Source of the DNA: a virus
Lineage: Duplodnaviria > Heunggongvirae > Uroviricota > Caudoviricetes
Virus record (IMG/VR): IMGVR_UViG_3300021400_002728
Location: 101,154-165,153 of that record
Direction: 5' to 3' (one strand)
Length of the DNA stretch: 64,000 nt
The translations under genes and the position numbers were made by a program. The notes beneath the pieces are model-generated. The model worked only from the letters and a program-made list of their open reading frames with translations. It searched no databases and was not told the DNA's origin. This document shows, piece after piece, positions 11,554-19,325 of the stretch (the first letter of the stretch is position 1; each line of letters starts with the position of its first letter).

Positions 11554-11676
11554 TAAGGATGGTAGGACTCGAACCTACAATGTACCGGCTCCCAAAGCAT
11601 TTGAAAATGGTTGCTGTCTCAATCACGAAAATGATAACGTCATAAACGGCGCGTCTACCAATTCCGCCACATCCTT
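11554..11676 (-). tRNA. tRNA-Pro(TGG) interrupted at 29/30 by a 48-nt insert (11599-11646)
   Basis: Removing the insert restores CCG|GC-TT TGG GA-GCCGG; acceptor AAGGATG/CATCCTT and T arm intact. Confidence 0.75.
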
Positions 11677-11678
11677 AG

Positions 11679-11802
11679 CGACCTAGGAAGGAATCGAACC
11701 TCCACCTTTTCCGGGACAGGGAAATTTATTTAAGTTAATTGCTGTCTAAATCACAGTGATGATTCTGAAATATAAATATGCTATCCATTACACCACTAGG
11801 CC
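11679..11802 (-). tRNA. tRNA-Asp(GTC) interrupted near 29/30 by a 52-nt insert (11722-11773)
   Basis: Removing the insert gives TTT|CC-CT GTC CC-GGAAA (junction can slide in the T run; C37 atypical); acceptor GGCCTAG/CTAGGTC. Confidence 0.7.
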
Positions 11803-11832
11803 ATATTTTATTTAATTTTTCAAGTTACAAAA

Positions 11833-12127
11833 ACCGATGTGCTATTACGCCAAAGTCTCCATTTTCTGATTGTCTTCGGACACGCTATGTGTTATACATC
11901 AGAATACTCACATCTTGCGCTAGAGTACACCACTCTCTTTCGCCCATCTGTGATGCACCGACTACCAATTAGACTTATTGGAACTTGGTTATTGTTTATG
12001 CCGGCGTACAAAGTACTTATCCTTAATCACAGTGACGGGTTCGCTTGTAGGATCTCTCTACCTTTACTACCCGCTTGACAACGATCCACTCTTTAGAGGA
12101 TAGCTGCTTCTAAGCTAACCTTTCGGT
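11833..12127 (-). ncRNA. 23S rRNA GTPase-associated-centre (H43-H44) mimic with a 237-nt insert
   Basis: ACCGAAAGGTTAGCTTAGAAGCAGCTATCCTCTAAAGAGT-[11851-12087]-GCGTAATAGCACATCGGT. Confidence 0.8.
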
Positions 12128-12134
12128 TTTTAAG

Positions 12135-12248
12135 TTGCAGGAAATGGAATCGAACCATTGTCTCGTCCTATATGTGTGGAAAATAAGATAGCTGTTAAAA
12201 TCACGAAAATGATTCATTTTACGCGCTCTGCCACTAAGCTATCCTGCG
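12135..12248 (-). tRNA. Met(CAT)-like tRNA with C1-A72 mismatch interrupted at 29/30 by a 41-nt insert (12180-12220)
   Basis: Removing the insert restores CGT|CC...GGACG around a 9-nt loop ACA CAT ATA. Confidence 0.6.
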
Positions 12249-12321
12249 AGCTCCCGATCGGACTCGAACCGATAACCTGCTGATTACAAATCAGCTGCTC
12301 TGCCAATTGAGCCACGGAAGC
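12249..12321 (-). tRNA. tRNA-Thr(TGT)
   Basis: GCTGA-TT TGT AA-TCAGC. Confidence 0.95.
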
Positions 12322-12364
12322 ATGGGGCGTCCTTATTTTAGGTGGCGACGCCCACCACCATTAG

Positions 12365-12488
12365 CACGGTGGAAGGATTCGAACCTTCGGCGACTTTCGA
12401 TTGTGCATAATCCAAAGTTTGTATGTAGCTATCCACTTAGGAAAATCTACTCGATGCACCAAATAGAATTTCCGCAGCTACCACCGCG
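12365..12488 (-). ncRNA. tRNA-like RNA with extended, branched anticodon arm
   Basis: CGCGGTG/CACCGTG acceptor, GAAGG-TTCGAAT-CCTTC, TGCAT/ATGCA and GTAG/CTAC inner stems. Confidence 0.55.
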
Positions 12489-12490
12489 AA

Positions 12491-12562
12491 AGCATGTAAA
12501 GGGAATCGAACCCTCATCTCCTGGTTGGAAGCCAGACATACGAGCCATTATACTATACATGC
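12491..12562 (-). tRNA. tRNA-Gly(TCC)
   Basis: TCTGG-CT TCC AA-CCAGG. Confidence 0.93.
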
Positions 12563-12735
12563 ATTGCTACTAAGATCCAAGGACCAATTAGTAAGATAAG
12601 ACCAAGCAAAGCAAATCCTGAAATTTCTGGACCGTCAATTGCATCACTTTCTTTAATTCCAGAACCGTAAACAATTGATAGACCTAAGAAAAATAAACCA
12701 AGTAATTCACTTATAATAAATAAACCGCCAGTCAT
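12553..12735 (-). CDS. Small two-TM membrane protein
   Basis: 60 aa hydrophobic; stop lies within tRNA-Gly 5' end. Confidence 0.45.
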   Translation of the reverse strand: MTGGLFIISELLGLFFLGLSIVYGSGIKESDAIDGPEISGFALLGLILLIGPWILVAMHV

Positions 12736-12852
12736 TTACTTGTCCTTTCAAATATATAAAGCGCAATAGCTATAATTGCATTATGGTTTCGAGCTAGGAC
12801 TCCCAATGTCCATTAGGATCATATATATCCGTTCCCACCACTTTATATATTA

Positions 12853-12985
12853 GACATTAGATAGGGATTCGAACCCTATACAGACAGCTCCGTACTGTTT
12901 ATTCATCAGACAATCTATTCGGAATATAGACCAAGGTTTTTCGACCTTGTGTGTCTGAATGCACTTGCCTCGTGCGTACTAATGT
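12853..12985 (-). ncRNA. tRNA-like RNA with branched anticodon region
   Basis: ACATTAG/CTAATGT acceptor, TAGGG-TTCGAAT-CCCTA; TCAGAC/GTCTGA stem carrying two hairpins. Confidence 0.55.
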
Positions 12986-13117
12986 TCATTTAATAATTTT
13001 TCACTATGTGCGGTGTATTTGTCTAATTAGTTATCACCGCTATAACTATACATTTTTAATAATCTTTCTAAATTTTAATAATTTTTCTAAATTTTAAACT
13101 ATAATAAATGTTAAACA

Positions 13118-13269
13118 GTTGCCGCGCCTTACATGATGGATTCGAACCATCTTCTCATGCTTTAAAGGCACACGACTTTCCAATTGTCCAATGCAGCGCT
13201 TTGAAGGATTCTAACCTTCACCTCTCAGTGCTCTCACTGAGTGTACTTACATTTATACTAAGTGGCAAC
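13118..13269 (-). ncRNA. Nested double tRNA-like RNA; inner unit (13124-13199) has ochre anticodon TTA
   Basis: Inner TGTGC-CT TTA AA-GCATG with D and T arms; outer GTTGCC/GGCAAC stem with own CTCAGTG-AGAG-CACTGAG and GAAGG-TTAGAAT-CCTTC arms. Confidence 0.65.
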
Positions 13270-13499
13270 TATTTATGATGGGCTGCCACATTTTATAAGG
13301 AAAAACGCGTGAAAAACCAGATGCTTGCGGCATCATACAATTATATTTTAGCCCAAAATATAACCGTATCATGATCTAAAATTTTATAAATTTATATTAT
13401 ATATAATTTAATTCCCCATTGGTATCTGCGTATCGTTATTTTTATAAGTAGGGTTATAAAATAACTTGCATGTCTCCTCTCTGTTAAGAATAACTGCAA

Positions 13500-17619: not shown

Positions 17620-17771
17620 ATATAATACACATTACCTATTCTCATGTGTGGAAATCAATAGGCTTGTCATCTATCAATGGGAGTCGAACCAAACTGCTGC
17701 AGCAGTCTTTCATACTATCCACACCTTGATCCTCATCTTAGATGTACACAATCTGCAGTTTAATGTGTAAG

Positions 17772-17854
17772 CGACGTGCACAGGATTCGAACCTGCAAAG
17801 CCTTACGGCCCAACTGTTTAGCAAACAGCTCCCTCAACCACCCGGACACACGCC
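17772..17854 (-). tRNA. tRNA-Ser(GCT)
   Basis: GCTGT-TT GCT AA-ACAGT, long variable arm, G73. Confidence 0.85.
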
Positions 17855-18478
17855 ATTTTGAATAATTTTCTGAGAACTCCAGTGTTCTCCAGTTGTCACA
17901 TGGTTAGCTCTGACGTACTTTATAATAGATTTATTAAAGTCATCATATGAATAACCAGAGGACAACCTCATAACAATTCCTTCACCATTATGGTTACTTA
18001 CATCTGTTATTGCTTTGTCAATGTTTGCTTTACTGTAAATACCTTTGTATAAAACTGGTACAGTAATTAAATTAAGTTCTTGTGCTCTCTTAACTGTATC
18101 TTCCCAAGAAAGACATTGTTCACCATTCCATATTGAGAATACCATTAAGTAGCTTGGTAAATTTTCATAATAGATCGAGTGTTTAGCAAATAAATATTCT
18201 GCACATACTCTTTCGTCTTCATTCATAAGATACTGAAATGATCTGATGTAGTTTAATAACCATGAATGATACTCTTTATGGGCTGAATCAATACTTCGTG
18301 CATGACATATATCTTTATAGATTGAAGTATTTTCACCATCCATCTTTTCAGTAATTACTACTTCTTTACCTTCAAAATAAGGTTCAAAGTCAGTGAAGAT
18401 CTTATCATCTGAACTTCGTCCAGGTGAGAATGGAAAATGATATGTTCTTGGATATTTATATCTTTTCATCTTTCTCAT
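17834..18478 (-). CDS. ATP-dependent RNA ligase (Rnl2-like nucleotidyltransferase domain)
   Basis: YKYPRTYH, motif I EKMDGEN, AEYL, FSIW, EGIVMR, KYVR motifs. Confidence 0.85.
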   Translation of the reverse strand: MRKMKRYKYPRTYHFPFSPGRSSDDKIFTDFEPYFEGKEVVITEKMDGENTSIYKDICHARSIDSAHKEYHSWLLNYIRSFQYLMNEDERVCAEYLFAKHSIYYENLPSYLMVFSIWNGEQCLSWEDTVKRAQELNLITVPVLYKGIYSKANIDKAITDVSNHNGEGIVMRLSSGYSYDDFNKSIIKYVRANHVTTGEHWSSQKIIQNGVCPGG

Positions 18479-18493
18479 CTCCTTATTTTGTAA

Positions 18494-18565
18494 TGCTCCC
18501 GACGAGATTCGAACTCATAATATTCGGTTCGTAGCCGAGTAGTTTATCCATTAGCTTACGAGAGC
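18494..18565 (-). tRNA. tRNA-Arg(ACG)
   Basis: CTCGG-CT ACG AA-CCGAA. Confidence 0.88.
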
Positions 18566-18701
18566 TAACCGCATTTCTATTAGATTCTTATAAATGATCT
18601 AGGTCCCGCTATTTATAGATCATACAGTTTGTCTAATAGCATTTTTATTCTTTGTGAGGCATTGCGTACGCTCTCACATCAGTAAGGATTTACCTTACAA
18701 A

Positions 18702-18773
18702 CTGGCCGTTAAGGACTCGAACCTTAAATCTCCTGAGTCAGAGTCAGGCGCCTTACCATTTGGCTAACGGCCA
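18702..18773 (-). tRNA. tRNA-Gln(CTG)
   Basis: CCTGA-CT CTG AC-TCAGG. Confidence 0.95.
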
Positions 18774-18783
18774 ATATTTAAAC

Positions 18784-18878
18784 GAGAACCATAGGATTTG
18801 AACCTATATCTTGAGAGTTGGACCTCACCTATGCTGCACGAGAGGAAGCGCTTAAACCTACATTACACCAGATTCTCT
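18784..18878 (-). pseudogene. Degenerate tRNA-like element with GCAGCAT insert
   Basis: GAGAATC/GGTTCTC acceptor and ATAGG-TTCAAAT-CCTAT; irregular core. Confidence 0.4.
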
Positions 18879-18880
18879 AG

Positions 18881-18951
18881 CAGGCACGGAAGGACTCGAA
18901 CCCTCACGAATAGTTTTGGAGACTATCATGCTACCATTACATCACATACCT
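18881..18951 (-). tRNA. tRNA-Trp(CCA)
   Basis: ATAGT-CT CCA AA-ACTAT. Confidence 0.93.
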
Positions 18952-18957
18952 ATTAAG

Positions 18958-19038
18958 TCGGCAGGGGTGGATTCGAACCACCGCGTCATATGAAACGGAT
19001 TTACAGTCCGCCGCAATCGACCGCTCTGCCACCTGCCG
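18958..19038 (-). tRNA. tRNA-Tyr(GTA)
   Basis: GCGGA-CT GTA AA-TCCGT. Confidence 0.93.
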
Positions 19039-19042
19039 ATAG

Positions 19043-19116
19043 TGGGTATTGTGGGACTCGAACCCACGACCTGATGATTAAGAGTCAACTGCTCTAGCCA
19101 TCTGAGCTAAATACCC
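19043..19116 (-). tRNA. tRNA-Lys(CTT)
   Basis: GTTGA-CT CTT AA-TCATC. Confidence 0.9.
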
Positions 19117-19262
19117 ATATTTCTAAATCGCCGACGAAGTCAATTCCGCTTCGCCTCGGACCTCATTTTACTACTTTCCCAGTGGCCAGTTGGTACTTGA
19201 GGCTACATTCGGTCTAAACCTTCTATAATCTCTCAATAATGATGAGTTTATATACTAAATAC

Positions 19263-19325
19263 ATGACACTTTATTGGGTTTCAAATTAAAAGTTTGATCC
19301 ATAATAAAATTGCTGTATGTGTCAC
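19263..19325 (-). ncRNA. Free-standing ACAGCAA module presenting a Lys(UUU) anticodon stem-loop
   Basis: GTGACAC-ATACAGCAA-TTTTATT...TCAAA-CT TTT AA-TTTGA...AATAAA-GTGTCAT. Confidence 0.7.

Follow-up and report, generated by a model that had tools for sequence, protein, structure and literature searches.

Why would one small RNA motif be built in two ways in the same locus, once as an insert within tRNA-like genes and once around the ends of free-standing small RNAs? The question is raised by a 64,000-nucleotide stretch (the window) of a Caudoviricetes phage (IMG/VR record IMGVR_UViG_3300021400_002728, positions 101,154 to 165,153). The complete phage genome is 394 kb long, and the window includes its tRNA array, whose 39 tRNAs and one tmRNA, as called by ARAGORN, are all encoded on the minus strand. 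The host is likely a gut Firmicute, judging from the closest bacterial homologues of a DUF2828 protein of the array, which come from Lachnospiraceae and other Clostridia. A sequence-only reading of the window had held that the tRNA inserts are circular permutations of the free module. By computation, we found both topologies and covariation in each, RNAs permuted as whole molecules, tRNA tertiary signatures in the insert-bearing genes, a predicted Ro60 fold in the DUF2828 protein, and co-occurrence of this protein with the RNAs. These observations point to a protein handle that is probably retained on tRNA mimics.

In both topologies, the module consists of a 7-bp helix followed by two unpaired nucleotides and then ACAGCAA. 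At its end distal to ACAGCAA, the helix has a G.U pair, which is left open in the free RNAs but closed by a cap in the inserts. A genome-wide scan found GUGAY..CAGCAA in register ten times, on the minus strand at 3.5-25 kb of the window; elsewhere in the genome it occurs only as scattered mismatched cases, so that the motif is limited to the strand of the array. The capped form (RUCAU-N4-GUGRU-N4-6-RCAGCWA) has five copies on the minus strand, with 0.00 expected from 100 shuffles. Every one of them (5/5) lies inside a tRNA-like body, or shell, and has its partner strand upstream, across a 4-nt loop. The open form (GUGAY..NCAGCAA..RUCAU) has four copies on the minus strand, with 0.03 expected, and a GG/CC variant makes a fifth; here the partner strand lies downstream and closes the ends of the small RNA. 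The proposed circular permutation is therefore real, with five capped and at least five open copies of the same helix and ACAGCAA. The spacing given for the open form, GUGAY-NN-ACAGCAA, was off by 2 nt and should read GUGAY-N4-ACAGCAA. Both search patterns were derived from the window's own copies, and hence independent support has to come from recurrence in other genomes. The copies, all on the minus strand, are as follows.

11554-11676, minus strand: Pro(UGG)-like tRNA shell with a 48-nt arm (11599-11646) in the 5' anticodon-stem strand at 29/30; capped module 11611-11637 (pattern match 11611-11635)
11679-11802, minus strand: Asp(GUC)-like tRNA shell with G73; capped module 11739-11765 (match 11739-11763), junction ambiguous between 26/27 and 29/30
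12135-12248, minus strand: initiator-like tRNA shell with C1.A72 mismatched and a degenerate loop containing CAU; capped module 12189-12215, which reads ACAGCUA (match 12189-12213)
15990-16085, minus strand: tRNA shell in which the capped module 16026-16054 (4-nt spacer; match 16026-16052) is the entire anticodon arm
3440-3569, minus strand: tRNA shell with capped module 3497-3523 (match 3497-3521) and a second hairpin replacing the anticodon loop
19263-19325, minus strand: open module; the cargo is a stem with a terminal Lys(UUU)-type anticodon loop
17447-17533, minus strand: open module (the GG/CC variant), standing where a D/anticodon(GCA)/T body would have its acceptor stem
22496-22565, minus strand: open module with hairpin cargo
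22798-22863, minus strand: open module with hairpin cargo
24960-25018, minus strand: open module, UCAGCAA variant, with hairpin cargo
22607-23302, minus strand: three more modules (starts at 23302, 23032 and 22767) in which the spacers are longer and the closing strands less certain

The orthologue of the Pro-like shell in the related genome L005 has the anticodon AGG, and the Asp-like shell has C37 in the window and A37 in orthologues. The L001 orthologue of the initiator-like shell retains C1.A72 and CAU though its acceptor stem differs. For the shell at 15990-16085, no deletion restores a tRNA. In the one at 3440-3569 (minus strand), which lies beyond the coordinates given in the sequence-only reading, the 5' anticodon-stem strand may pair either with its normal partner or with ACAGC of the module, forming a possible switch. 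One further candidate, 11385-11549, was rejected as a module, as its ACAGCAG is absent from the orthologues in L001 and L005. This minus-strand element is a tRNA-like RNA that has a GCA loop and a T arm and is interrupted in the middle by a very long insertion, and it is kept in both relatives without the ACAGCAA module.

The sequence-only reading had named a lack of covariation in the GUGAY/RUCAU helix as grounds for giving up the idea. Covariation of the helix is seen in both topologies and rules out a simple sequence repeat. For the capped form, shells were gathered from ∼300 loci by acceptor, D-loop and T-arm features plus the core heptamer, yielding 188 distinct sequences in 71 clusters at 75% identity; a bare pattern scan gives mostly chance matches (84/95), and only its hits inside tRNA shells were used. 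With the register preset (2-nt spacer, 4-nt loop) and all 71 clusters included without selection, 71% of the cells are paired, compared to 57±1.6% with shuffled partner strands, and 44 of the 71 clusters pair at six or seven positions. Among 46 tetraloop modules, 96.6% of the cells are paired (36-42% in slid controls), and two-sided changes occur at five of the seven pairs, in 65 cells (0/500 shuffles). As this subset was chosen for pairing, the unselected test is the fairer one; the shuffle and slid controls leave some relatedness uncorrected. For open sites, the site's own 5' strand has a perfect partner downstream in 94 of 287 clusters, compared to 11.9±2.7 for swapped strands.

The two forms obey a common per-position rule. 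Pair 1 is G.U in 45/45 capped and 59/94 open cases, pair 2 is U-A or G-C, pair 3 is G-C in 42/45 capped and 81/94 open cases, pair 4 is A-U, and pairs 5-7 are free. Since the terminal G.U, the G-C and A-U pairs, the fixed 2-nt spacer and the identity of the unpaired strand are conserved in both topologies, these features point to a site recognized by shape plus sequence. To this extent, and given the candidate binder described below, the earlier suggestion of a three-dimensional binding site and a protein handle is supported. However, a retained protein handle does not follow from the two topologies by themselves: bulge-helix-bulge (BHB) splice motifs show the same closed and open duality. When single sequences are folded, the helix has a probability of about 0.9-1 in all open units and a family median of 0.83-0.86; in the CAU shell it rises from 0.03 without constraints to 0.9 with the cloverleaf held.

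It had also been claimed that an anticodon loop stands next to both forms. This holds for most of the copies then considered: the neighboring loops are a canonical UGG (Pro), GUC (Asp) with a non-canonical C37 and a degenerate CAU, and, in free units, UUU (Lys) and GCA (Cys). It does not hold for the shells at 15990-16085 and 3440-3569, nor for the free units upstream of the DUF2828 gene. Family-wide, an anticodon loop is present in 37/94 open units (6 expected); the loop is canonical in 13 of 62 capped families, and any 5-bp stem with a 7-nt loop is found in 37 of the 62. Moreover, 45/94 open units have neither a T arm nor an anticodon loop, and several shell families, some of them widespread, have no anticodon arm at all. 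The loop is thus cargo outside the unit, and its adjacency is common but not general. Many capped shells from different families (L020:6628, L151:5383, L132:8907, L215:5817 and others) have a 7-nt loop with a non-canonical A at position 32.

The shells retain A14 (54/55), the D-loop GG (54/55) and a covarying 15-48 Levitt pair (A-U in 27, G-C in 23), which means that they have been selected as tRNA shapes. The position of the arm is less constant: the junction differs among shell families from 26 to 31, with linkers of 6-21 nt, and we therefore rejected a fixed insertion site at 29/30. Discriminator bases are often at odds with the anticodon.

The permutation extends beyond the module to the whole molecule. 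Isolated phages have open modules with a cargo that begins with the lower anticodon stem and continues through the variable loop, the T arm and the sealed acceptor stem to the D arm. Such inside-out RNAs were found in mycobacteriophage Gabriela (L292:6521-6642), Bacillus PBC2, Felix O1a, Enterococcus VRE9_3 and Sinorhizobium phiN3. When the Gabriela RNA was re-permuted, by cutting it in the acceptor loop and joining its ends with four nucleotides, it became colinear with the shell at 12135-12248 of the window (score 86; 33±8 for shuffled sequences and 13 without permutation) and scored 110 against a gut-phage shell, with the arm at the same anticodon-stem position as in the shells. Capped shells and inside-out RNAs are therefore exact circular permutants of each other as whole molecules. 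In total, three wirings exist: the handle as the acceptor stem (17447-17533), the handle open at the anticodon stem with the acceptor sealed, and the handle capped at the anticodon stem with the acceptor open. In loci L229 and L236, the 5' strand of one unit comes only a few bases after the 3' strand of the open unit before it, and the two form a capped hairpin; tandem open copies may thus provide a simple route between the wirings. We found no capped shells in 11 regions of isolated phages, each of them partial.

A candidate for the binder is encoded in the array.

20827-22290, minus strand: DUF2828/DUF7788 protein (487 aa; Pfam and structure model), predicted Ro60 (TROVE + vWA) ring and putative binder of the module

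The structure model (pLDDT, the predicted local distance test, 90) suggests a helical-repeat ring closed by a vWA domain, that is, the Ro60 fold. All of the top 12 Foldseek matches (12/12) are Ro60 proteins (E 5e-9 to 1e-5, TM score 0.45-0.61), and the residues D294-x-S296-x-S298 are invariant in the family, forming the DxSxS motif of the metal-binding site (MIDAS) of the Ro60 vWA domain. At the sequence level, Pfam yields only DUF2828/DUF7788 and no match to TROVE (PF05731), and a search of PDB sequences found no match, including any solved Ro60. Some homologues are labeled Ro-like in GenBank. The protein is carried by 710 isolated phage records, and its Felixounavirus homologues are 35% identical to the window protein.

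The RNAs accompany this gene. Around DUF2828 genes, ACAGCAA occurs 599 times in sense and 128 times in antisense orientation. Within the fetched flanks of the gene, 56/80 bacterial and 75/80 viral loci contain capped shells, which usually stand just upstream of it in a tandem series with open units. In a scan by RNA pattern only, 12/12 viral records with a capped shell encode DUF7788, compared to 1/35 records with chance matches. The modules of the window lie 1-17 kb from the gene, on the same strand. Two conserved divergently encoded open reading frames (ORFs; L218:2077-3072 and L249:4420-5709, minus strand), possibly regulators, are each found near 9/80 bacterial loci and have no Pfam match at E 0.001.

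We consider it probable that the module is a Ro60-like protein handle retained on tRNA mimics rather than an intron, both of its forms probably representing an undescribed kind of Y RNA that in the capped form keeps normal tRNA ends. Retention of the arm is the simplest reading, as only 13/62 families have canonical loops, junctions and linkers vary, some families are armless, no endonuclease or RtcB was found in the phage genome, and the tRNA core is kept. We infer that the DUF2828 protein binds the module and that the RNAs are expressed with the arm in place and serve as decoys or tethers. The phage ring would recognize the 7-bp helix (G.U, U-A or G-C, G-C, A-U and three free pairs) together with the two nucleotides and ACAGCAA. 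The helix end would be dispensable for recognition, and the handle could thus take three wirings: it may join the two ends of a small RNA that has a hairpin or an anticodon loop as cargo; it may join those of an inside-out tRNA with a sealed acceptor stem; or, under a tetraloop cap, it may extend from the anticodon stem of a tRNA body that keeps normal 5' and 3' ends. Capped RNAs would be processed from the array as tRNAs are, keeping the L-shape, and, once bound, would present their elbows, acceptor ends and often an anticodon-like loop. The displayed mimics may act as decoys or tethers in conflicts over tRNA damage and repair. We favor such a ring displaying a library of tRNA mimics by analogy with the Rsr-YrlA pairs of RNA repair operons, and because of the RNA ligase in the array, RtcB at some bacterial loci, the anticodon-loop cargos, and the Bas63 protein gp130, which is Ro60-like, precedes a tRNA cluster and is reported to counter the ppl defence (bioRxiv 10.1101/2024.10.10.617714). 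The authors of that study suggested that some 'tRNAs' may be Y RNAs, the RNA partner of gp130 being not defined (bioRxiv 10.1101/2024.10.10.617714). From its genus and position, gp130 appears to be the same DUF2828 orthologue as the window protein.

Several points weigh against a retained handle. The motif is unlike the known Ro60 site, GNCGAAN0-1G, and the known sites in Y RNAs are built from the 5' and 3' ends. In the Pro shell, the folding probability of the helix is 0.03 without constraints and 0.2-0.5 when the cloverleaf is held, and predictions for shells often pair ACAGCAA (median unpaired 0.5-0.56). The 12 co-occurring records represent about four lineages and hence are not 12 independent events. 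The split 5-bp stem with a 7-nt loop, found in 37/62 families, exceeds the null expectation (8±3), as in a splicing substrate. RtcB, which adjoins 7/80 bacterial loci, fits repair and equally splicing.

The closest known system is bacterial YrlA with Rsr/Ro60 (RF02553; Chen et al. 2014, PMC4201824). Like the shells, YrlA has a tRNA-like domain with D and T arms, the Levitt pair being present in the shells, and a protein-binding arm at the anticodon-stem position; it also lies beside a gene for a Ro60-fold protein, with several RNAs per locus, and is spread over phages and bacteria. Unlike YrlA, whose handle is GNCGAAN0-1G near the 5' end, the module uses the 7-bp helix and ACAGCAA, its presumed partner is a DUF2828/DUF7788 protein with 12-15% identity to solved Ro60, and its distance from the protein gene is wider than the 4 kb typical of YrlA. 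The capped shells are of the opposite permutation, with the handle internal and the acceptor end open. The YrlA plan, in which the 5' and 3' ends form the binding stem and the acceptor is sealed, recurs in the inside-out ACAGCAA RNAs of Gabriela and Felix O1; such wiring is found only in the twins from L290-L292, L297 and L298. The RF02553 covariance model has no matches in the 394-kb genome, and its best score among relatives is 31.8 bits against the cut-off of 69, for a di-tRNA-type match. The module would work like Ro60 with a Y RNA, yet falls outside YrlA by model, motif and end topology. Deinococcus Yrn1 (PMC4201824) resembles 17447-17533 of the window, as the handle replaces the acceptor stem and the anticodon and T arms are inside, but it has another motif and another protein subfamily. 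Thermus phage phiLo (PMC12135203) similarly encodes a Ro60-fold protein with RNAs (Yrl1-2) nearby, although these use CGAA.

The best-surviving alternative, which we regard as unlikely, is that the module marks sites of processing, as a bacterial equivalent of BHB: the closed form would be an anticodon-stem intron and the open form the ends of a permuted tRNA gene, with a nuclease cutting the three-way junction and an RNA ligase or RtcB sealing the stem in at least some copies. In algae and archaea, BHB is an established case of one motif that is closed in tRNA introns and open in permuted tRNA genes, in each at a tRNA junction (Soma 2014, PMC3978253), and it also occurs at non-canonical sites within the anticodon stem. 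After excision, a canonical cloverleaf is obtained for Pro(UGG) and nearly so for Asp(GUC), both called by ARAGORN, and the re-permuted Gabriela RNA gives tRNA-Asn; a canonical tRNA is restored in 13/62 families, with 0.8 expected. A ligase is at hand in the window, in addition to RtcB beside some of the bacterial loci.

17834-18478, minus strand: RNA ligase (PF09414; Pfam), possible repair partner

On the other hand, 49/62 shell families yield no canonical tRNA, and most copies of the module are unable to do so; 45/94 open units lack both a T arm and an anticodon loop. The lengths of the junction and linker vary, and the conserved bases are far from the junction, unlike in BHB. Neither an EndA-type endonuclease (PF01974) nor RtcB was found in the complete phage genome (the host genome was outside the search), and the host is bacterial. 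Complete tRNA-Pro, tRNA-Asp and tRNA-Met genes are already present in the window alongside the shells, and discriminators often mismatch the anticodon. In four RNA-library assemblies, contigs of related strains are unspliced over the Pro and Asp inserts (11437-11843; 11399-11699), at a low depth and possibly derived from DNA; among the joints listed for these libraries, 15 of 121, the neighboring putative group I intron also has none, so that these contigs favor neither splicing nor retention. A fuller version, in which the ring holds the handle while a nuclease and a ligase remove it, and capped shells and inside-out genes are stored nuclease-proof precursors giving tRNAs on demand, would be a tRNA cut-and-join system of bacteria and phages not described so far, for which we see only a slim chance. 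A group I or II self-splicing intron was rejected, as the inserts are ∼40-50 nt, the catalytic core is well over 100 nt, and no Rfam intron matched.

We think it improbable that the capped RNAs are working tRNAs, charged and decoding with the arm retained, while the bound ring protects the anticodon arm against nucleases or hands the tRNA over for repair. They have open 7-bp acceptor stems and an intact core, and in some cases a matching identity (Asp with G73; C1.A72 with CAU, in two orthologues). However, the ribosome should have no room for a 40-50-nt arm with a 55-kDa ring at the anticodon stem, most shells have a non-canonical loop or none, and the Pro shell lacks C1-G72. It is about as doubtful that the module is a structured site for something else, be it a protein of the host, a different RNA or a self-contained tertiary motif, with DUF2828 a mere fellow traveller of tRNA arrays. 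DUF2828 genes do often adjoin such arrays, and binding by the protein is itself inferred; still, modules flank the gene far from any tRNA array in Gabriela, Fnu1 and bacterial operons, the co-occurrence is 12/12 versus 1/35, and Ro60-fold proteins are known binders of such RNAs. Finally, the idea that the shells are decaying tRNA pseudogenes and the inserts a mobile scar or a dispersed DNA repeat, suggested by the similar sequences of the five window copies and the complete duplicates of the same tRNAs, is highly improbable and largely refuted by covariation, given the compensatory changes at 5/7 pairs, the strand bias, the conserved tRNA core and the recurrence in 71 clusters.

No Rfam family corresponds to the module at gathering and E-value thresholds. 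Our literature search found no description of the handle, its coverage not extending to Burroughs and Aravind 2016, Sim and Wolin 2018, and Sim et al. 2020, where a prior mention is possible; nor did it find the permutation with an internal handle and an open acceptor described for any Y RNA. A normal-ended tRNA with an internal Ro handle would thus be a so far undescribed Y-RNA-like architecture. The natural circular permutation would delimit the minimal binding site without experiment, at ∼25 nt with dispensable ends, and what RNA the phage Ro60-like proteins bind, a long-open question, can thereby be tested directly in phages grown in the laboratory (Felix O1, cluster L mycobacteriophages). 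It also accounts for the 95-130-nt 'pseudo-tRNAs' overlooked by tRNA finders in gut phages and Lachnospiraceae. The portable 25-nt handle and its cognate ring could serve as an RNA tag.

The array has other features as well. A tRNA with a UUA (ochre) anticodon is called at 13126-13197 (minus strand), and both SmpB and tmRNA are phage-encoded (5471-5908 and 9551-9912, minus strand). Adjoining GGDEF and EAL genes lie upstream of the array (25270-28346, minus strand); the pair is found in relatives L004 and L005 and absent from L001 and L002. The halves of a tRNA-Leu are ∼740 nt apart (20011-20786, minus strand), with an HNH ORF (20210-20743) between them, an arrangement resembling a group I intron that has no match at the Rfam gathering level. 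Directly upstream of tRNA-Pro, a GOLLD-like RNA (24112-24548, minus strand) scores 90.9 bits (E 8.7e-23), below the family cut-off of 150. The segments 12088-12127 and 16565-16620 (minus strand) presumably resemble the GTPase-associated centre of 23S rRNA.

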